A DNA stretch of 64,000 bases, from positions 384,001-448,000 of the forward strand of contig OZ240219.1 of the NCBI GenBank assembly GCA_965197645.1, read 5' to 3'. Shown one piece after another: positions 15,678 through 25,139 of the stretch; the first letter of the stretch is position 1; every line of letters starts with the position of its first letter. The translations under genes and the position numbers were made by a program. The stretch is from Dehalococcoidia bacterium (GTDB lineage Bacteria > Chloroflexota > Dehalococcoidia > Plut-88900). The notes under the pieces were generated by a model that saw only the letters and a program-made list of their open reading frames with translations, had not been told where the DNA came from and made no database searches.

Positions 15678-16763
15678 ATGAAGGCAGTGGTGATGAGGGA
15701 ACCCTACGTACCGGTAGAGGTCGAGGACGTGGAAGTGGGCACGCCCGGGCCTCGTGAGGTCCTGATCCGTACCGGTGCGGCAGGTGTGTGTCACAGCGAT
15801 CTACACTACGTCGATGGACTGTACACCACCGAACTGCCGACGATCCTCGGCCACGAGTCTGCCGGGACCGTCGAGGAGGTTGGTGAGCTGGTCACCTACT
15901 TTCAGCCCGGCGACCGGGCCATAACTTGTCTTTCAGTATTCTGCGGGACCTGCGACAAATGCCTGACGGGCAACATGGCCCTGTGCCGGAGGATCGGTCT
16001 TGATCGCAGGCCCGATGAGCCGCCCCGCCTCCACAAAGGCGATGAGCTGATATATCAGTACGCCAATCTGTCCTCCTTTGCCGAGTACATGCTGGTGCAC
16101 GAAAACGCTGCGGTGAAGGTGGATGACGACGTTCCCATCGAGGTACAAGCCCTGATCGGATGTGGGGTGACCACCGGCGTGGGAGCGGCGCTCAACACGG
16201 CCCAGGTGGAGCCGGGCAGCACCGTCGCCGTCATAGGGTGCGGGGGCGTGGGCTTGAGCGCGGTGAACGGTGCATACATCGCAGGTGCGGCCCGGGTAAT
16301 CGCCATAGATGCCGTGGAGGACAAGCTGGCCCTTGCCCAGAAGGTAGGGGCCACCGATGTCATCGACGCCTCGGGCGGTGGAGTCGTAGAGAAGGTGATG
16401 AACTTGACCGGAGGCATGGGCGTCGATTACTCCTTCGAGGCGATTGGAAAGAAAGAGACTGCGGAGCAGGCCTTCAATATGCTGGACAAGGGCGGCGCCG
16501 CTACCATCATCGGCATGATACCCGAGGGCACCGAGATCCACATCGATGGACCGTCGATCCTGGCCGGAAAGAAGATCCAGGGGAGCAGCATGGGGTCCAA
16601 CAGGTTCCGGGTGGATATGCCCCGGTACATGGAGCTCTACCGACAGGGCAGGCTGAAGTTGGACGAGATCATCTCCAAGCGAATCAGGATCGAGGACATC
16701 AACGAGGCCTTTGAGGACATGCGAGACGCTCACACAGCTCGCAGCGTCATCATGTTCGACTAA
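15678..16763 (+). CDS. Zn-dependent alcohol dehydrogenase (MDR), paralog of 2190-3284
   Basis: CHSD, GHE, CGTCDKC..C, GCGGVG; AAGGAGG RBS. Confidence 0.93.
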   Translation: MKAVVMREPYVPVEVEDVEVGTPGPREVLIRTGAAGVCHSDLHYVDGLYTTELPTILGHESAGTVEEVGELVTYFQPGDRAITCLSVFCGTCDKCLTGNMALCRRIGLDRRPDEPPRLHKGDELIYQYANLSSFAEYMLVHENAAVKVDDDVPIEVQALIGCGVTTGVGAALNTAQVEPGSTVAVIGCGGVGLSAVNGAYIAGAARVIAIDAVEDKLALAQKVGATDVIDASGGGVVEKVMNLTGGMGVDYSFEAIGKKETAEQAFNMLDKGGAATIIGMIPEGTEIHIDGPSILAGKKIQGSSMGSNRFRVDMPRYMELYRQGRLKLDEIISKRIRIEDINEAFEDMRDAHTARSVIMFD

Positions 16764-16785
16764 CGGGCCGCATTTCCGACCTGGC

Positions 16786-17005
16786 TAGATTGCCACGCCC
16801 CGACTTCGTCGGGTCTCGCAATGACGAGGCCGTCGTTGCGAGCGACCGGCGAGGGAGAAACACCTCAGACTGCCGGCAAGGGGCGTCGCCCCTCTGCAGA
16901 CCCCACGTACCTTGACCAGGGAGTCCAGAGGGCTTCCCTCTGGCCGGGGGTTTGGGGGACGTTCCCCCAAGTCCACAATCGTCTCAGGGTGGGTGGGAGG
17001 GAAAA
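16786..17005. repeat. composite repeat: family B-like half plus family A copy 3
   Basis: agattgccacg..ctcgcaatgac, then gaggga..cctcagactgccggcaagggg..cgcccctctgca, then an inverted diverged copy. Confidence 0.7.
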
Positions 17006-17041
17006 CCAACCACTTGGGCCGGGTGGGGTTGCACACCCGGA

Positions 17042-18370
17042 TTAGACCGGGAGTTCCGATCGATCCTTGACGGTAGGCCCATCGACCGGCTGGGTCAGCA
17101 TCCGCACCGCAGCCCTCAGCAGATCGATTCGCCAGGCCTGCTCATGCTCTGAGGTCAGCTTCGGGTCGCCCAGTGGATGATGGAATCTCCCCTCGGTTCT
17201 GAAAATCCGGTTGGCGCCGACCCTCTCGGCGATGCTGACGAGGGCGGTGATAAGCACCACGGGGATACCGGCCCGTTCGATCTCCTTGGCTAACGTAGCG
17301 CCGCTACGGGTTCCCGTGCCTCAGGTGGCGGTTAGAATCGCCGCCCGGACGTCCCGTGCCTTCATGTCCTCGGCCATTTCGCGCCCGATCCGGGTCATCG
17401 TCTTGATGTTGGCCATGTTCCCGGTGGTGACGTAGTAGTGGTCGGATAGCCGGCTGATGACGCCTGTTTTCTCCAGGAACCGAGCGGCATCGAGAGGCAC
17501 GGTACGATCGGGTGCATCGTTGGTGCCGCTGGTGTCACAGCCGCCGTGCCACGCCTCGTAGTCGCCCCGCCTTAGACTGTTGAGACCCTTGATCGGATAC
17601 TTGAGCCACTTGGACGCGTTCCAGGTCTCCAGCCTGTCGGGGTTGCCTGAAGGCACGAGACCTGACTCGGTGACCAGGGCCACAAGGCTGCGGCTGAGGT
17701 CTGCTATCTCAGGCGCCGGGGGTACGTTGTCGAAATCGGGAATTGGCAGCTCTGTGCGGTACGAACGTCCATCAAGCTTCGCCAGCAGCATGTTCGCGGC
17801 CCGCTCGGCGGCGCCCTGCTTCACCCTTACGTTTCGCCGGACGCCCCGGGGGAGGTACCCCTCGTCATCGGCCGGTCCGATCTCAACACCGCGGCCGAGT
17901 TTAACGACGAAGTCGGCCAGCCTGGGTAGAGCGTCGTTCATCGATGCTGCCGTCGGGCTGGTGGGCAGGATGTAGACGTCCTCACGGAACAGCTCGACGC
18001 CCGGGTTATTGACGTTCATCGCCGTCACCGCGGGCTTGCCTCGTTGCTGCAAGGCTTGAGCAATCGCTCCGCAGGCCGTGCCATAACGACCCGAGTTGAA
18101 GGCGGGTCCGGCCGCCAGCACGTCGGCAGGATGAGAGTCGGCCAGGGCTATGAGTCGACTTGTCGCCTCATCCTGGTTCTCGATGAAGTAGTTGTCGCCG
18201 CAGACCAGCGTCCCGGTGATAGTGGCCCGGTCGGCAAGATGCTTGGCCAGGCCGACGCCGGGCCCGACGGGGCCGGGACGGTACTGGGGAGGAGCGTCCG
18301 CATGGTCCTCGCCTCCTATGCCGCCGAAGAACTGGTTTACGTAGTGGATAACGGTGATTTCGTGATTCAT
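17042..18370 (-). CDS. grdB: glycine/betaine/sarcosine reductase component B, selenoprotein subunit (GrdB-like); Sec at UGA 17321-17323; 442 aa
   Basis: HYVNQFFGGIGGE, GPAFNSGRYG; homology continues in frame through the TGA: LTAT-U-GTGTRSGATLAKEIERAGIPVV..VGANRI..HPLGDP. Confidence 0.92.
17288..17320 (-). promoter_or_regulatory. putative bacterial SECIS hairpin
   Basis: CGUAGC-GGC-GCUACG stem-loop with a G-starting loop 18 nt downstream of the UGA. Confidence 0.65.
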
Positions 18371-18385
18371 GCTAAATTCCCAGCG

Positions 18386-19678
18386 CTAGAAATCCCTGGC
18401 GGTAAAGCCGTTGGTCTGCATCATCCAGAAGCCGGCGTACATCTCGTGGGCGCTGAGGGTGAGACTGCCAGACGCCCGGAGGCGGTGGCCCCACTCCTCG
18501 TTGGAGCTGAAGACCAGCTCCTCGCCTCCAACCACCCGCTTCATCCCGGGCACGGTGAACTGCCTGTCGGCGCCTCCGCCGGAGACTATCGCATCGGCTT
18601 CGCTAGCGTAATCCACAATCGGCCAGTCCCTCCCTTCGATACCACCCAGCTCATGCACCATCTGGACGGTCTGCACCCCCGAGCTCTCCAGTGCCTTAAC
18701 GCTCTGCATGAAGTCCACCCAGGTATTGCCGGTGCCCTCCAGAGTCATCACCGCGCCCTTGACATCCAGCATTCTGGCGACGTTTGCGACCATGTAGCCG
18801 TTCCTCTCCTTGAGCTCATGGTCGTCGTGGTGTCCACGGCATAGTATCACCCCTGCGAAGTCCAGGTCTCGGCCGTGGCGGCTGTACAGGTCCCGGATCA
18901 CGGGATGGTTCAGGCGTAGCCACGTTGGGACCTTCATCATGTTCCGGTAGTTGCCGCTGACCACGGCGCCGTCGAAGTACTCGTTGGGGTGCAGTACCGT
19001 GGGCGCCAGCGAGGCTACCGGCTGGCCGTACAGAAAGGTCTGCACCAGAAACCCCTGCTGCTGCACCTGGTCGACGTAGGCCACCCTGGGCAGGACCGGG
19101 TCTACGTCACCAAGCTCGAACTGCTCAATCTCATCGGGGTCCGTTGCGCTGGTGGCGACCTCGGCAAGGTGCTGTGAGACGCGAAGGCTGCCCATGCGAA
19201 TGGCGTTCTCGAACTCCTCGTTGGTGGCACCACGGCGAGGGGTAAACACCAGGGCGAGGTTATGGGTGTCGGAGCAAGCGGAGAGCTCGGCGCCCGGTCC
19301 GCTCATATCTATGATGCCCTCATTGAACTCCAGGATCCCGCTGGTCGGTTCGGGGAGCCGGGCCGATTGCAACACCGCCAGTCCCTTTAGTCGACGGGTC
19401 ACACCGGCGCCTACGGTGCGGGCGGGCCCCAGAAAGCCGGGGAAGGCGACGGTATCCTCGGTAGCCTTGATGCGGGGCTCGATGGCGTCCAGGACGTGGA
19501 TGATGCGGGTCTCTTCCCCCGGCGAGGCCAGCTCTATCCGAACATCCGATACGGAGTCGTCGTACCTGGCGATCCGGGACACCTCTTCCCGGTCGATGAT
19601 GAGGGCGCCGTTGACCAGGCGGGTCTCGGGACCGAACTGAAGAGCATCGACAGAATAGCTTTCAAGCCGCAGCTTCAA
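18386..19678 (-). CDS. glycine/betaine/sarcosine reductase component B, alpha/beta subunit (GrdE/GrdI-like)
   Basis: DAIEPRIK, EGIIDMSGPGA, PTVLHPNEYFDGAVVSGN, NHPVIRDLYSRHG, EGTGN; adjacent to grdB. Confidence 0.9.
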   Translation of the reverse strand: MKLRLESYSVDALQFGPETRLVNGALIIDREEVSRIARYDDSVSDVRIELASPGEETRIIHVLDAIEPRIKATEDTVAFPGFLGPARTVGAGVTRRLKGLAVLQSARLPEPTSGILEFNEGIIDMSGPGAELSACSDTHNLALVFTPRRGATNEEFENAIRMGSLRVSQHLAEVATSATDPDEIEQFELGDVDPVLPRVAYVDQVQQQGFLVQTFLYGQPVASLAPTVLHPNEYFDGAVVSGNYRNMMKVPTWLRLNHPVIRDLYSRHGRDLDFAGVILCRGHHDDHELKERNGYMVANVARMLDVKGAVMTLEGTGNTWVDFMQSVKALESSGVQTVQMVHELGGIEGRDWPIVDYASEADAIVSGGGADRQFTVPGMKRVVGGEELVFSSNEEWGHRLRASGSLTLSAHEMYAGFWMMQTNGFTARDF

Positions 19679-19714
19679 GCCGCTCCTCCCGTTGGTGTCA
19701 TGACTGCTCCACGG

Positions 19715-20464
19715 CTACAGAGCGGTAAAGCCGCCATCGATGACCAGCTCCGAGCCCGTCACGTAGGACGACTCATCGGACGCCAGGAAGAGGATGGCGT
19801 TGGCCACCTCCTCGGGTGTGCCAAACCGTTTCATCGGCACGGCATCGATGTACTTCTGATGGTAACGGGGATTCGCCTTTATCGGGTCCATCATGGGAGC
19901 GTCTATCGGGCCTGGATGCACCGAGTTGGCTCGAATACCGTTCCGGGCATACTGTACGGCCGTCGACTTGGTCAGGTTTCGCACGGCGGCTTTGGAGGCG
20001 CCGTAAGCAGAGCCGGTGGCCGAGCCCAGGATGCCGCCGACCGACGAGAGGTTGACGATGGACCCGGCGCCCGCCTCGATCATCTCCGGAACGACGTACT
20101 TGGTGCCGAGGAACACCCCCTTGGCGTTCACCTCCATGATGCGGTCCCAGTCCTCGCTGCTGGTATCCGCCACACGGTCCCGCTTGATGATTCCGGCGTT
20201 GTTCACCAGCACATCCAGCTTGCCGAAGCGGTCGAGTGTCGTGCGCACCGCCGCTTGCCAGTCCTCTTCGCTGGTGACGTCCAGCTTGAAGAAGGTGACC
20301 TGGCCGCCGGACTCGGCGATCTCCTCGGCCAGCTGCTGCCCTTCCGTCTCCAGCACGTCGCCGATGGCGAGGCTGGCTCCTTCCCTGGCGAAGAGCTTGG
20401 CCTCGGCCGCGCCGATACCCCTGGCGCCACCGGCAATCAGGGCCACTTTGCCTTCGAGTCTCAT
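19715..20464 (-). CDS. short-chain dehydrogenase/reductase
   Basis: GGARGIG, NNAG, YGASK; GGAGG RBS before ATG 20464. Confidence 0.93.
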   Translation of the reverse strand: MRLEGKVALIAGGARGIGAAEAKLFAREGASLAIGDVLETEGQQLAEEIAESGGQVTFFKLDVTSEEDWQAAVRTTLDRFGKLDVLVNNAGIIKRDRVADTSSEDWDRIMEVNAKGVFLGTKYVVPEMIEAGAGSIVNLSSVGGILGSATGSAYGASKAAVRNLTKSTAVQYARNGIRANSVHPGPIDAPMMDPIKANPRYHQKYIDAVPMKRFGTPEEVANAILFLASDESSYVTGSELVIDGGFTAL

Positions 20465-20474
20465 GGCGTGCCTC

Positions 20475-21638
20475 CTAGTCCTCCTTGAGAGCGGGGATGA
20501 CCTCACTGCCAAGTAGCTCGATGGAACGCATGGTCGCCCGGTGGGACATGGCGCCGCACTGGGCCTCCAGCATCAGAGAGCCGATGCCGAGCTGGCGCTT
20601 GATGTGCAACAGCTTCTCCGTGACGGTGTCGGGCGTCCCCACGATGATGCGGTAATCGTCCTGAAGCTCCTGGTAGCTCATCTTCTGCAGCGGTACGGTC
20701 TTACCACCCGTGCTCTTGGCCGAGTTTATCACCGCGCTCTTCCTGCCGGCCCTGCTCAGATATCCGGGTGGAGCGAAGTACTCCCGCGGGCCGAGCAACG
20801 GTCCCCGCATTCGCCACATGATGTGCCTACCCTCCTCTTGGGCCTTCTCCTCGGTGTCGTTGACGTGACAACAGACCATGAAGGCGAATTTTTCCGGGCC
20901 TGCCTCGATACCCTCTTCGGCGGCATAGTTGCGATAGAGGTCAAACAGGCCCTGGGCAGTCTCCAGCGACGTCAGGAAGGCGGCGTAGGTGTAGCCCCGG
21001 CGAGCGGACCACTCAACCGTCTCGGGACTGCCCGTGCCCGGCGTCCAGATGGGCGGGTGGGGCTTCTGCAAGGGCAGCACCCAGGGGTTGACCACGCGGA
21101 AATCGAAGTGGTCACCCTCCCATCGAAAGGGTCCGGGGGTAGTCCAGGTTTTGACCATCAGGTCGTGCGCCTCTTCGAACCGCTCCCGGTTATGTACGGG
21201 ATTGGTGTTGGTGGCCCAGCTTTCGACTCCCAGGCCCCGCACGATGCCCGAGATCAATCGGCCCCCCGAGATAAGGTCCACCATCGCTATCTCTTCCGCC
21301 AGGCGCACCGGATTGTCCGTCGTCGAGATCAGGTTGCCCAGTATCAGGATCTTCGCCCGGGTGGTCATCCGCGCCAGGATGCCGGCGATCACGTTCACCC
21401 CGACGTTCATGCAGGAGCAGCTGTTGTGGTGCTCGTTGATCATCAGACCATCGAAACCCACCTCGGCGGCGTACTGGTACTCGTCCAGGTAGCGCTGGAA
21501 CAGGCCCTGAGCCGTTGGGGCATCAAAGTAAGTGTTGGGGAAGGTCAGGCGCATGGAGGGATAGTTGTCGGCTTCCGACTCGTCGAACTCGGCGTAGGGC
21601 ATTTCGCTGAACCAGTAGACGTCCATACCGGTCTCCAT
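20475..21638 (-). CDS. LLM class flavin-dependent oxidoreductase/monooxygenase
   Basis: GFDGLMINEHH, NPVRLAEEIAMVD, PLQKPHPPIW. Confidence 0.9.
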   Translation of the reverse strand: METGMDVYWFSEMPYAEFDESEADNYPSMRLTFPNTYFDAPTAQGLFQRYLDEYQYAAEVGFDGLMINEHHNSCSCMNVGVNVIAGILARMTTRAKILILGNLISTTDNPVRLAEEIAMVDLISGGRLISGIVRGLGVESWATNTNPVHNRERFEEAHDLMVKTWTTPGPFRWEGDHFDFRVVNPWVLPLQKPHPPIWTPGTGSPETVEWSARRGYTYAAFLTSLETAQGLFDLYRNYAAEEGIEAGPEKFAFMVCCHVNDTEEKAQEEGRHIMWRMRGPLLGPREYFAPPGYLSRAGRKSAVINSAKSTGGKTVPLQKMSYQELQDDYRIIVGTPDTVTEKLLHIKRQLGIGSLMLEAQCGAMSHRATMRSIELLGSEVIPALKED

Positions 21639-21651
21639 TCAGTAAGTGCGA

Positions 21652-22437
21652 TCAGTCCAGAAAGCCCAATACCGTACGAACGAACTCGTCCGGCTTCTCG
21701 ATCTGGGGTGAATGGCCGCAGTTCTCGATGATCGATAGCCTGGCGCCGGGGATGGACCGCTGGTACAGCTCTCCGCAGTTCAGAGGCACAATACGGTCCT
21801 CTCGACCCCAGACGATGAGGCTGGGCACGTCGACCCGTTGCAGAAGGCCGGGGAGCCGGGGATCGTGCATGTAAGGCTTCCAGCAGAGGCGCACGGCCAT
21901 CTCCCGGTTTGACTCCTGGGTCTGCTTCTCCTCATCGGTCAGGGTGCGTTCGTACAGCTCGCTCCACTCCGGGACCTGGCCGGGATCGAAGAAACCGAGC
22001 TGAGCAACCTGTTGGGGGGTAATGAGAAAGACGTCGGCGATTTCCCCCTCCGTGGGTTTGATACCCACGGCGCCCACCAGCACCAGCCGCTCGAGATTAT
22101 GGGGGCACATAACCGCCATCTCGGCTGCTATCCACCCGCCCATGGAGAAGCCCATAAGCCGGACCCTGTCCAGATTCAGCCGGTCCAGAAACCAGAGGTA
22201 GAAGCAGGCCATATCGGGAATGGTCTCGAGCCACGGGGGTCTTTGAGATCGATCATAGCCTGGGTGAGAGGGGACATAGAGGGTGAATCTCTGGGCGAGG
22301 GCCTCGTTGTACTTGCGCCATCCCCGGTGTCCTCCTGCGCCGTGGAGGACCAGCAGGGGCTCTCCGACGCCGCCCTTCATGAAGTGGACCTCGGAGCCAC
22401 CGATGTTGACCTGTTCTTCGCGCCACTCTACCGTCAT
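21652..22437 (-). CDS. alpha/beta hydrolase
   Basis: LHGAGG, GFSMGG nucleophile, WGRED, CGHSPQIE. Confidence 0.9.
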   Translation of the reverse strand: MTVEWREEQVNIGGSEVHFMKGGVGEPLLVLHGAGGHRGWRKYNEALAQRFTLYVPSHPGYDRSQRPPWLETIPDMACFYLWFLDRLNLDRVRLMGFSMGGWIAAEMAVMCPHNLERLVLVGAVGIKPTEGEIADVFLITPQQVAQLGFFDPGQVPEWSELYERTLTDEEKQTQESNREMAVRLCWKPYMHDPRLPGLLQRVDVPSLIVWGREDRIVPLNCGELYQRSIPGARLSIIENCGHSPQIEKPDEFVRTVLGFLD

Positions 22438-22459
22438 TATCCGTCTCTTTCCCATCGCC

Positions 22460-22587
22460 CTCGGGGCATCTCTTCTCAGTCGATGCCAAGGTCGCCATCG
22501 GCCAGGCCGGTCTTGGATACGCCGATACCCCCGGCACTACCGGCTATCAAGGCTACTTTCCCTTCGGGTCTCATGGCAAGCTTCCTA
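22460..22587 (-). pseudogene. decayed copy of the LLM stop codon and SDR 5' end
   Basis: 22521-22587 aligns with 20411-20477; reads MRPEGKVALIAGSAGGIGVSKTGLADGDLGID*. Confidence 0.8.
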
Positions 22588-22863
22588 GCGCTTGTTGGGA
22601 TCGGGGATTACGTCTTTTCCCAGCAGGCCATCCGATAGCATTCTATCAATTCGGTGAAGGGGTACATCGACCATGATGTTGTCGGTCATGCCGTTGTTGG
22701 CCAGTCTGGTATGGAGATACTCGGTCTCCTCCTGGCTAACGACCCCGTCCGAGATCACGCCCCTGGCAAGCCTAATCAAAGTGTCCATTTGCCAGTTGTT
22801 GATGCGGGACGAGGAACGGACCAATCCGGCAAGCTCCTCATCACAATAATAGACGGCTATCAT
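22585..22863 (-). CDS. hypothetical protein; probably a truncated N-terminus of a TerB-like/BRCT-associated protein
   Basis: DTLIRLARGVISDGVVSQEETEYL..RIDRMLSDG pattern (recalled similarity, not searched). Confidence 0.5.
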   Translation of the reverse strand: MIAVYYCDEELAGLVRSSSRINNWQMDTLIRLARGVISDGVVSQEETEYLHTRLANNGMTDNIMVDVPLHRIDRMLSDGLLGKDVIPDPNKR

Positions 22864-22883
22864 TACATCTGTTCTCTTGCTGC

Positions 22884-23828
22884 CTACGGTCCTGGCGGAT
22901 CCAGGGGTATTCCGTACATCGAGTCCGGCTTCAGCCTCGCCGCCTCCGACCCGGGTAGAGGTCGGGACGTCCTGGGCGTTCTGGACGTTCTGGGTGTCTT
23001 AGGCGGCAGGACCGGACCGAGCATGGGTGGAAGAGGCCCCTTGATGCGCCTCAGCAGGTAGGCTGTGAGGAACGCCCCGATGGCCGGCACCCCGACGGCT
23101 ATCAGGATGCTGAACATTATGAAGCCCATCTCCAGCCATTGCCGCAGGAAAAAGACGATGTCGTAACCAGGATAGAACCATAGCCACCTCATCACGGTCA
23201 ATATCCCGAACAGCAAGGCGATCGTCTTCCACGGTATCCGGTCGGTCTCCTTCATTCGCACGGCGCCCCAGACGACCACCAGTGTCCCGCAAAGGCTGAG
23301 AACGTCTAGGATGATGGCCCACTCCATATTTCCAAATCTCAACCACAGCAATGAATAAGGATAGTGCCAGCTTGGGCCTGTGACCAGTGCGAGAAACGGT
23401 AGTATCCGGCTGTAGTGCCGTCCCGTGTAGGTGGCGGCAAAGAAAAACATCCCGAGAAAGTTCATTGCTACCAGAATCCACCATATTGTTGAATAAATGT
23501 CGGACCCCAGTGACTCCGAACGTGAAACGTACCTGACGTTTTGCGCAGCAGACAGCGCCAGTAGGTAGAGATCGTAAGCGACGAAGTAAGCGAGGAACCT
23601 CTGCCGTACCTTGACCAGCACGGCTAGCAACACGATAGATGGGACAGCCATCTCCAGGTTCAGCACCAGCGTGAACAGCGCACTATTGGTCCAAAACCAG
23701 CGTACTGGCCAAAACCATGTCTTTGCATCAAAGACGAAAGAGACCAGGAGAGGCACGGCGAGCACTGTCACCACAGGCCAGAGGTACTTCCTACGCCTCC
23801 TGACGATGAGTTGCATCCGTCTCATCAT
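22884..23828 (-). CDS. hypothetical multi-pass membrane protein with Pro/Arg-rich tail
   Basis: Many hydrophobic segments; AGGAG RBS; AT-richer than the flanking operon. Confidence 0.7.
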   Translation of the reverse strand: MMRRMQLIVRRRRKYLWPVVTVLAVPLLVSFVFDAKTWFWPVRWFWTNSALFTLVLNLEMAVPSIVLLAVLVKVRQRFLAYFVAYDLYLLALSAAQNVRYVSRSESLGSDIYSTIWWILVAMNFLGMFFFAATYTGRHYSRILPFLALVTGPSWHYPYSLLWLRFGNMEWAIILDVLSLCGTLVVVWGAVRMKETDRIPWKTIALLFGILTVMRWLWFYPGYDIVFFLRQWLEMGFIMFSILIAVGVPAIGAFLTAYLLRRIKGPLPPMLGPVLPPKTPRTSRTPRTSRPLPGSEAARLKPDSMYGIPLDPPGP

Positions 23829-23886
23829 TCTCCTACCTTAGAGCCGTAGTCTTGCCGGGATGCTCCTCTCGACCCTCGTGAAGGGA

Positions 23887-24285
23887 ACCAGCAGGGGCTC
23901 CCCAACCCCACCCTTCATCTTCCTCTCCCTTCCTACTCTTCCTCCTCGTTGGAGGACGAGCCGGACTGCCTGGAGTCGATGTTGACTTGATCTTCTCTCC
24001 ACTGTACCGCCATTATCCGTCTCTTTCCGATCGAATTCGGGGCATCTCTTCTCAGTCGATGCCAAGGTCGCCATCGGCCAGGCTGGTCTTGGATACGCCG
24101 ATACCCCTGGCGCCACCGGCTATCAGGGCCACTTTCCCTTTGAGTATCATGGCGTCCTCCTAGTCCTCCTTGAGAGCGGGAATGACCTCACTGCCCAGCA
24201 GCTCGATGGAACGCATATTCGCCTGGTGGGACATTCGCCGCGCTGGGTCTCCAGCATCAGGGAACCGATACCAAGCCGGCGCTTG
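23887..24285 (-). pseudogene. decayed duplicate of LLM 3' end, SDR 5' end and hydrolase 5' end
   Basis: 24097-24285 aligns with 20411-20600; 23887-24160 aligns with 22349-22587 apart from a pyrimidine-rich insertion. Confidence 0.85.
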
Positions 24286-24455
24286 TGGGTGACGGGGTCT
24301 CGGCCCAGGTCAATGGCGAGCTGCTCGAGGCGTCCGGGGGATCTGCGTGTAATGGTAGTCATGAGGAGATTACATGCGATTCTCCCCATCAGCTATGAGA
24401 TCAGCGCACCATAGCCGCTTTCCTTCCACCCCACCCACTCCCAGGCATCGGACTA

Positions 24456-25139
24456 CTATTCCTCCCCGGATGTGAGGATTTCGAGGATTTCCGTGTGCCC
24501 TCGCCATGCCGCTTCGCTGACTGCCGTATTACCATCCGGGTCAGCCGCCAGTGGGTCAGCTCCGGCCTTGATCAATGCCCTGACGACATCTTCATGACCC
24601 CGCCATGCCGCCTCAATCAATATCGGGCTATCGTCAGCATCAAGAGCGTTGGGGTTGGCCCCTGCATCTAGGAGGATTTGTACGATCTCCGCATCCCCCC
24701 GCCACACAGCCTCATAGATGACCGGGTTCCCATCTGAGTTACGGCCGTTAACGTCCGCGCCCGCGGCGACCAATGCCCTCACTGCATCAGCATTTCCTCT
24801 CCAAACGGGCTCGTTCAGAATCGCGTCTCCCTCAGCGTCCGTAGCATCCGATATCGAAGTCCGTGTGGCCGTCAGGTCCGGGGACGGTGTGGCCGTCAGG
24901 TCCGGGGACGGTGTGGGCGTCAGGTCTGGGGACGGTGTGGACGTCGGGTCTGGGATCGGTGTGGACGTCAGGTCTGGAGACGGCTCCGGAATAGACGTGG
25001 GTGTGGGGTCGGAGGGGAGAGCTAGGGGCACCGTCGGTTCGGAGTCGGATATGGTTAACACCACCACCACCACTAAGGCCGCTATGAGGCCAAGAAACAG
25101 GGACAGCGTGACTGCGATAACAGGTTTCGATAAGTTCAT
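24456..25139 (-). CDS. membrane-anchored ankyrin-repeat protein
   Basis: N-terminal TM helix, Pro/Thr linker, four repeats of (E)AAWRG(H/N)xEIVxxLLxAGADxN. Confidence 0.88.
   Translation of the reverse strand: MNLSKPVIAVTLSLFLGLIAALVVVVVLTISDSEPTVPLALPSDPTPTSIPEPSPDLTSTPIPDPTSTPSPDLTPTPSPDLTATPSPDLTATRTSISDATDAEGDAILNEPVWRGNADAVRALVAAGADVNGRNSDGNPVIYEAVWRGDAEIVQILLDAGANPNALDADDSPILIEAAWRGHEDVVRALIKAGADPLAADPDGNTAVSEAAWRGHTEILEILTSGEE
24863..24982. repeat. five tandem 24-bp repeats encoding PSPDLT(A/P/S)T
   Basis: gtgtggccgtcaggtccggggacg units start at 24863, 24887, 24911, 24935 and 24959. Confidence 0.9.

Follow-up and report, generated by a model that had tools for sequence, protein, structure and literature searches.

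A cysteine-free selenoprotein B paralog of marine Dehalococcoidia that probably serves a shared GrdA and GrdC

Introduction

Can a selenoprotein B that has lost both cysteines of its active loop, and that is encoded apart from its usual partner proteins, still belong to a glycine-reductase-type system? This question is raised by a GrdB-like gene in a Dehalococcoidia bacterium, located on a stretch of 64,000 nucleotides that we refer to as the window (C1:384001-448000 of a 3.21-Mb single-contig genome, 94% complete; contig OZ240219.1). The nearest named relatives of this organism are metagenome-assembled genomes (MAGs) of Dehalococcoidia, some of them labelled SAR202. Selenocysteine (Sec, U) in selenoprotein B is followed by the motif UxxCxxC (Wagner et al., 1999, as given in the available text of PMC6778437 and PMC13188914). 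The loop of the window protein lacks both cysteines, and the initial annotation described the gene as an orphan, in an operon with a luciferase-like monooxygenase (LLM), that had been repurposed for an oxidative catabolic route. Our analysis favours a different reading, to which we assign a probability of roughly 0.68: the GrdE-like and GrdB-like genes would encode one substrate-specific protein B paralog, one of three in the genome, that serves a shared GrdA and GrdC in trans and acts on a substrate other than glycine, with a hydrolase-LLM pair and a short-chain dehydrogenase/reductase (SDR) merely adjoining it.

Results

A selenoprotein B gene conserved across an in-frame TGA

The GrdB-like gene lies on the minus strand at 17042..18370 and encodes a predicted protein of 442 amino acids with Sec at codon 350 and the loop ATUGTGTRSGA. 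Translation table 11 splits it into two pieces (17321-18370 and 17042-17260), which are joined when the in-frame TGA (17321..17323, minus strand) is read as U (...AILTATUGTGTRSGATLAKE...). The joined protein scores 418.7 bits against PF07355 (cut-off 22 bits) and 450.3 against TIGR01918 (cut-off 65.45), and NCBIfam selenoprotein-B models span the TGA up to residue 434 (residues 7-434 for TIGR01918), bearing out the earlier claim that GrdB homology runs through the TGA and the SECIS-like hairpin behind it. Together with the position of Sec, the SECIS and an adjacent PF09338 gene, these full-length scores place the protein in the selenoprotein B family; where the family motif UxxCxxC is expected, its loop reads UGTGTRS. 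A sequence search of the PDB with the GrdB-like and GrdE-like proteins gave no match at E<=0.01.

The SECIS element occupies 17283..17320 on the minus strand, and its full-length match to the Rfam model SECIS_4 (22.9 bits, E 0.0062) begins at the base directly after the TGA. A spacer of 12 nt separates its stem-loop (CGUAGC-GGC-GCUACG, 17294-17308, minus strand) from the TGA. SECIS_4 also matches directly after the TGA in three relatives, L006 (31.5 bits), L029 (29.7 bits) and L012 (27.1 bits), with all four of the copies scanned scoring below the gathering score of 38. The hairpin is kept in 14/14 aligned homologues, two of which carry one compensatory double change from UA to CG; folded as a single sequence, the region after the TGA is no more stable than its shuffles (z 1.06).

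A first scan recovered 13 near-full GrdB orthologs at 42-74% identity, from Dehalococcoidia MAGs and one Methylomirabilota MAG. The TGA stands at the same column in all 13 ortholog loci and in both other GrdB paralogs of the genome, and the loop reads UG[TS]GTRSGA in 12 of the orthologs and UGSCTRSGA in the remaining one. In four pairwise comparisons, for which dS is saturated, dN/dS in the 92 codons after the TGA was ~0.08-0.18, as compared to 0.07-0.14 before it. Purifying selection past the TGA, together with the SECIS, supports translation of the gene through UGA as Sec.

Could the gene nonetheless be a decaying or non-functional paralog? We consider this very improbable. The motif said to be required is indeed missing, a GrdB without UxxCxxC has been called a 'likely pseudogene' (PMC6778437, in its available text), and the window paralog is absent from the sister genus, but 13/13 orthologs retain TGA, SECIS and frame even at 42-74% identity, dN/dS is ~0.1 before as well as after the TGA, an intact partner gene lies alongside, and paralogs linked to grdA share the loop. 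These data support the view that a true selenoprotein B homologue has been conserved here, and not a degenerate copy. Gene callers end such genes at the TGA, leaving 89/99 database relatives with a length of 347-351 amino acids.

Loss of the loop cysteines in the selenoprotein B family

A profile scan contributed a sample of 80 further family loci from many phyla. The tree was inferred by a quick LG+G4 search with midpoint root on 88 rows, and later on 92 rows with four more Dehalococcoidia genes; rows left out were frameshifted, masked or truncated (L038, L056, L059, L072), partial (L025, L071), or on the same contigs as other rows (L014, L015 and L018, equal to L027, L026 and L028). UxxCxxC is the loop type of 58 of the 88 rows, followed by UxxGxxS (16), UxxGxxC (6) and UxxSxxC (5), with UxxCxxS, UxxDxxC and CxxSxxC found once each. 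The 58 UxxCxxC rows carry STUGTCTRCGA in 49 cases, HGGYD in 47, TSGG in 49, TGTGT in 44 and VGNGT in 5, and the 14 rows of the window orthogroup carry HGGCD in 13, TESG in 12 and TGNMA in 11. The motif shifts noted in the initial annotation (HGGCD for HGGYD, TESG for TSGG, TGNMA for VGNGT) thus hold on the 88-row alignment, with VGNGT itself present in 5/58 of the UxxCxxC rows.

A branch with SH-aLRT support of 80 sets the 16 UxxGxxS rows apart from the rest of the tree, and the window orthogroup within the 88-row tree has support of 100, so that the UxxG homologues do group on the tree, a point that the initial annotation had proposed to test; the conserved synteny to be tested with it is taken up below. 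Cysteine-free loops occur in 20 of the 92 rows of the extended tree. They include the GrdB of the sister genus (UGTGTRSG) and that of another Dehalococcoidia family (f6/g8), which reads UGTSTRSG, lies beside grdC-grdA and falls within the UxxSxxC group (SH-aLRT 98). We had considered a single origin of all cysteine-free loops, and this was ruled out by the UxxSxxS pair nested inside the UxxSxxC group (SH-aLRT 98); on this tree both loop cysteines have been lost completely at least twice. Loss of the first cysteine alone is scattered over Deltaproteobacteria, Nitrospinota, Bacillota and others.

By the same sequence comparisons, the cysteine-free loop is a trait of a Dehalococcoidia-centred marine Chloroflexi group and not peculiar to the window copy. 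Since the same loop is found in a paralog beside grdC-grdA, it is no mark of an orphan, repurposed copy, as had initially been proposed: both other paralogs of this genome share it, one of them next to grdC-grdA. That Sec, SECIS and purifying selection persist without either cysteine suggests that the loop cysteines are not essential to the enzyme class, and the data are consistent with their being dispensable in this lineage. We also looked at Cys278, an orthogroup-specific residue within HGGCD (13/14 rows), as a general substitute thiol. This was ruled out, as it is missing in 7/20 cysteine-free rows; for the window orthogroup it is still a candidate.

A single grdA and grdC elsewhere in the genome

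The machinery for Sec is present in this genome, with selD (379.7 bits), selA (547.7 bits) and selB (346.8 bits), each scoring above its model's cut-off, and a tRNA-Sec(UCA). Three full-length GrdB genes, all reading TUGTGTRSGA, and six GrdE-like open reading frames (ORFs) were found, as well as a single grdA (C1:259381-259821, 206.7 bits) with an in-frame TGA and a CFVU (CxxU) motif, directly preceded by a single-copy grdC (NF040746, 658.7 bits, cut-off 450). This pair lies ~141 kb from the window locus, in a gene row that begins with an MFS gene and continues with grdE-like, grdE-like, grdB, grdC, grdA, Pyr_redox and amidohydrolase genes; no NCBIfam model was matched at E<=1e-10 by the Pyr_redox ORF after grdA. 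The window itself, in the 11 ORFs scanned between ~12.5 and 25.1 kb, showed no grdA, grdC, grdD or thioredoxin gene. The term orphan therefore describes the window correctly and the genome incorrectly, and a genome-wide search of the kind called for by the initial annotation recovers selA, selB, selD, tRNA-Sec, grdA and grdC, with grdD not found. An ordinary glycine reductase is thus not evident either.

Several further features of this gene complement deserve mention in their own right. The selD gene (C1:941844-942767) has an in-frame TGA of its own. A second tRNA-Sec-like gene (L007:5074-5163, plus strand, equal to C1:2853074-2853163; RF01852 50.8 bits, gathering score 47) has the anticodon loop CUUAAAA, with UAA in place of UCA, received no ARAGORN call, and has an IS1595 transposase ORF on one side and the grdE/grdB paralog C on the other; the gene is reminiscent of the 'allo-tRNAs' reportedly described by Mukai et al. 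in 2017. Two short PrdB-like ORFs (L009:5824-6600, plus strand, and L010:7500-8286, minus strand; C1 ~2775.8 and ~2793.5 kb) end at TGA and score 96.6 and 112.8 bits against TIGR04483, below the cut-off of 300. With TGA read as Sec (VPAUP...) each gains ~100 more open codons, making them candidate selenoproteins. Finally, tandem GrdE-like ORFs (L008:5591-8264, minus strand, C1:529.6-532.3 kb) occur without a nearby GrdB, with four family III CoA-transferase genes flanking them.

Co-occurrence of GrdB with GrdA and GrdC in relatives

Across 151 sampled Dehalococcoidia genomes, GrdB was found in 18, and GrdA and GrdC were found together in the same 19 genomes, which include all 18; the 19th, with no GrdB match, has a completeness of 69%. 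In these genomes GrdA and GrdC each occur once, and GrdB gives 1-6 matches. One related genome has a second GrdA-like match (G153:C4:872344-872784) with in-frame TAG and TAA instead of TGA, which may be a pseudogene. All 11 genomes that bear an ortholog of the window GrdB have a grdA with TGA; in 10 of these genomes that grdA is not on the sequence fetched around the ortholog, and in at least two it is on another contig. At locus L029, the ortholog pair (GrdB 65% and GrdE-like 74% identity, loop UGTGTRSG) runs straight on into grdC (559 bits) and grdA, in the order grdE-grdB-grdC-grdA. Over the whole family, a GrdA match falls within the fetched flanks, which differ in length, at only 25/94 loci, indicating that B-modules usually lie apart from grdA.

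These distributions bear on the proposal, made in the initial annotation, that the window protein is a repurposed, GrdA-independent Se-dependent enzyme that cleaves C-N or C-S bonds in an oxidative route and resolves its selenoether with the help of neither local cysteines nor proteins A and C. The lack of grdA, grdC and thioredoxin genes among the scanned window ORFs, the cysteine-free loop, the haem-copper oxidase of the organism (subunit I, COX1, 538.4 bits) and Cys278, which could in principle be a new resolving thiol, would all fit such an enzyme. Nevertheless, the genome does have grdA and grdC, these co-occur with GrdB in 18/18 Dehalococcoidia and in 11/11 ortholog-bearing genomes, the L029 ortholog is physically linked to grdC-grdA, Cys278 is missing from 7/20 cysteine-free rows, and synteny is not conserved, an outcome that the initial annotation itself had named as refuting. 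We regard a GrdA-independent enzyme as improbable, at about one chance in ten.

The GrdE-like subunit and the substrate

The gene next to grdB (18386..19678, minus strand) encodes a GrdE/GrdI-like alpha subunit of protein B (430 amino acids, PF09338 373.6 bits), and a GrdE-like gene stands beside GrdB in 13/13 ortholog loci. In GrdE the pro-protein is cleaved at SGN|C to give a pyruvoyl group, the precursor of which is Cys242 in C. difficile GrdE (according to the available text of PMC9908766). Canonical GrdE-like partners read SGN|C-VA[AP]CDK at this site and the window protein reads SGNY-R-NMMK, with tyrosine at the cleavage-cysteine column in 13/13 GrdE-like rows of the orthogroup and cysteine at that column in none of the six GrdE-like ORFs of the genome. 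The window subunit is therefore not predicted to be processed to a pyruvoyl enzyme.

Substrate-specific models were likewise not reached. The GrdB-like protein scores 413.6 against the GrdB equivalog TIGR01917 (cut-off 602.2) and 419.2 against the betaine reductase model NF040795 (775), and the pair scores 447.1 and 292.8 against the sarcosine reductase models NF040794 and NF040793 (800 and 780, the latter being GrdG); the GrdE-like protein scores 128.1 against FarE (675). The motifs published for GrdB and GrdF (PMC9751293, in its available text) are not matched in three blocks compared by eye, where the window protein reads GPAFNSGRYG, WHGGCDT...RTVPLD and TTGNMANI. We calibrated the NCBIfam models on 20 sampled GrdB sequences, eight with variant loops. 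UxxCxxC sequences can reach the GrdB or GrdF cut-offs (L033, L058, L103, L091, L046, L068, L094 and L039 lie above that of TIGR01917, and L039 passes GrdF at 810.3), and equivalog cut-offs were reached by none of the eight variant-loop sequences tested.

The serine of 'STUG', proposed as a possible carbonyl site (PMC10838667, in its available text), is replaced by alanine in 12/14 rows of the orthogroup. With the pyruvoyl cysteine missing and this serine replaced, Schiff-base activation of a primary amine appears unlikely. As a leaving group, a quaternary ammonium (as in betaine) or a similar moiety is more likely than the amino group of glycine.

The adjoining hydrolase, monooxygenase and SDR genes

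Upstream of the GrdE-like gene, on the same strand, lie an SDR oxidoreductase (19715..20512, PF13561 259.6 bits), an LLM (20475..21638, PF00296 132.1 bits) and an alpha/beta hydrolase (21652..22455, PF00561 105.7 bits), so that the five closely spaced minus-strand genes of the initial annotation are confirmed as ORFs and all named by Pfam and NCBIfam. From hydrolase to GrdB, they are separated by 13 nt, a 38-nt overlap, 36 nt and 15 nt. Further upstream, two ORFs (22585-22863 and 22884-23828) matched no Pfam or NCBIfam family, and an ankyrin-repeat protein is encoded at 24456-25139 (minus strand).

We compared these neighbours across loci in both directions. Neither the hydrolase nor the SDR was found beside GrdEB orthologs at any of 13 loci (E<=1e-10 over at least half the length), and only L022 among them has a match to the window LLM, at 27% identity. 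Conversely, among 80 loci with LLM orthologs (L110-L189, 64-75% identity), 72 carry a co-directional hydrolase ortholog upstream of the LLM, an SDR is near one (33% identity), and GrdE or GrdB is near none. Six assemblies hold both orthologs, with LLM and GrdEB on different contigs or >600 kb apart. The lack of shared synteny in these reciprocal tests indicates that the supposed operon consists of independent modules brought together: by gene content, hydrolase-LLM and GrdE-GrdB are two separately conserved modules that, with the SDR, adjoin in this lineage. The hydrolase-LLM pair (20475-22455) is itself a two-gene module widely conserved in Dehalococcoidia/SAR202 MAGs, and we would guess that it combines an ester-forming monooxygenase with its esterase.

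A recruitment specific to this lineage, in which hydrolase-LLM, SDR and GrdEB are co-transcribed as one pathway, seems unlikely on this evidence. Such a pathway could run, for example, from an alcohol to a ketone by the SDR, through Baeyer-Villiger-type oxygen insertion by the LLM and ester cleavage by the hydrolase, to cleavage of a substituted acetate by protein B with GrdA/GrdC. It would be in keeping with the one-strand gaps of 13, -38, 36 and 15 nt, with unrelated LLMs near GrdEB at L014, L016 and L022, and with a weak consensus scan that placed no promoter-like site inside the block and a terminator-like hairpin only after grdB. Set against these are the counts of 0/80 LLM-ortholog loci with GrdE/GrdB and 0/13 GrdEB loci with this hydrolase or SDR, the separation of the two orthologs in the six assemblies, and 70 LLM matches in 3.2 Mb, which make chance adjacency common. 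For the same reason we dropped an apparent enrichment of LLMs near GrdEB, as those at L014, L016 and L022 are not orthologs of the window gene. The oxidative route initially assigned to the locus has only adjacency to one of these 70 LLMs to recommend it, and the operon with the LLM finds no counterpart in the relatives.

The regulatory scans were weak throughout. The terminator-like hairpin (17006..17022, minus strand), 20 nt past the GrdB stop and inside a repeated element, was found in a scan that gave 4 sites, as compared to 5.2 expected in shuffles, and no sigma-70-like promoter site was found in 16500-24500 by a consensus scan that carries no information for this phylum. Between grdB and the convergent alcohol dehydrogenase gene, the spacer (16785-17041) contains two short repeated elements (~16785-16854 and 16915-17025), with 179 BLAST matches across the genome and many copies in the related genome G083.

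Discussion

The distribution of partner genes and the features of both subunits suggest how a protein B paralog acting in trans might work. A substrate of the type X-CH2-COO- would bind protein B, where Sec350 would attack the alpha-carbon and expel X; the resulting carboxymethyl-selenoether would be handed to the shared GrdA, and from there the acetyl group would pass to GrdC.

The closest published case is the fluoroacetate reductase FarB/FarE of Cloacibacillus porcorum. It too is a GrdB/GrdE-type protein B with no CxxC after Sec (FarB 'lacks the conserved CxxC') and an alpha subunit that is no pro-protein, and the far operon, which is without grdA and so encodes the pair away from it, is thought to feed shared proteins A and C (PMC10838667, in its available text). 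In contrast to the far locus, the 11 scanned ORFs of the window include neither a radical-SAM gene (farC) nor one for an MFS antiporter (farA); the GrdE-like subunit of the window remains far below the cut-off of the FarE model NF053623, and the pair comes from a different phylum, with FarB itself not among the rows of our tree. The betaine reductase GrdH/GrdI is similar in that its alpha subunit does not mature into a pyruvoyl enzyme (grdI, in the available text of PMC10838667), in sharing GrdA and GrdC, and in a substrate with a ready leaving group, as we infer for the window protein. It differs in its model score and in its loop, given as UxxCxxC for GrdB/F/H (PMC6778437, in its available text) and UxxGxxS here, in a comparison whose sample held no true GrdH. 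With the clostridial GrdB/GrdE and GrdF/GrdG the window pair shares PF07355 and PF09338, the position of Sec, the SECIS directly after UGA and the alpha-beta gene order, and it is set apart from them by its scores below the equivalog cut-offs and by the lack of both the cleavage cysteine and the loop cysteines.

A number of observations weigh against the paralog acting in trans. The sister genus (five genomes) is without the window GrdB type, making the paralog accessory; there, a GrdB of the paralog-C type lies beside an ortholog of the window's alcohol dehydrogenase. The case for a hand-over to GrdA is built on co-occurrence and on one linked ortholog. The GrdB-like protein is below every equivalog cut-off, and GrdH was above cut-off in none of 20 sequences scanned from the 80-locus sample, so that 'betaine-like' draws on a literature statement about GrdI. 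Tight, co-directional spacing makes co-transcription with the SDR, LLM and hydrolase possible in this genome. Finally, GrdD (NF040747) was found in neither this genome nor any of the 151 class genomes, and acetate kinase had no match in this genome; the clostridial ending, from acetyl phosphate to ATP, is thus not evident.

A wider reading, which we offer tentatively and consider possible rather than probable, is that oxidase-bearing SAR202-type Dehalococcoidia have a stripped-down glycine-reductase-type system, with one GrdA, one GrdC, no GrdD or acetate kinase, and several protein B paralogs without loop cysteines or pyruvoyl site. Such a system may serve reductive C-X cleavage of betaines or alpha-substituted acetates to acetyl units, perhaps passed to CoA, instead of ATP-yielding Stickland fermentation, and the window copy with its Cys278 would be one member. 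A literature search of main texts found no paper describing a cysteine-free Dehalococcoidia GrdB group, and by its sequence the window pair belongs to an undescribed, cysteine-free and non-pyruvoyl Dehalococcoidia group inside the known family.

UxxCxxC has been taken as required in the literature, to the point that a GrdB was judged a likely pseudogene for lacking it (PMC6778437, in its available text), and yet in two Dehalococcoidia groups that have neither cysteine, Sec, SECIS and purifying selection persist, in some cases next to grdC-grdA. As gene callers cut these proteins at the TGA, annotation of the family in marine metagenomes is incomplete. Should the wider reading be true, abundant SAR202-type bacteria would use a Se-dependent reductive route, differing in construction from the clostridial one, on osmolyte-like compounds.

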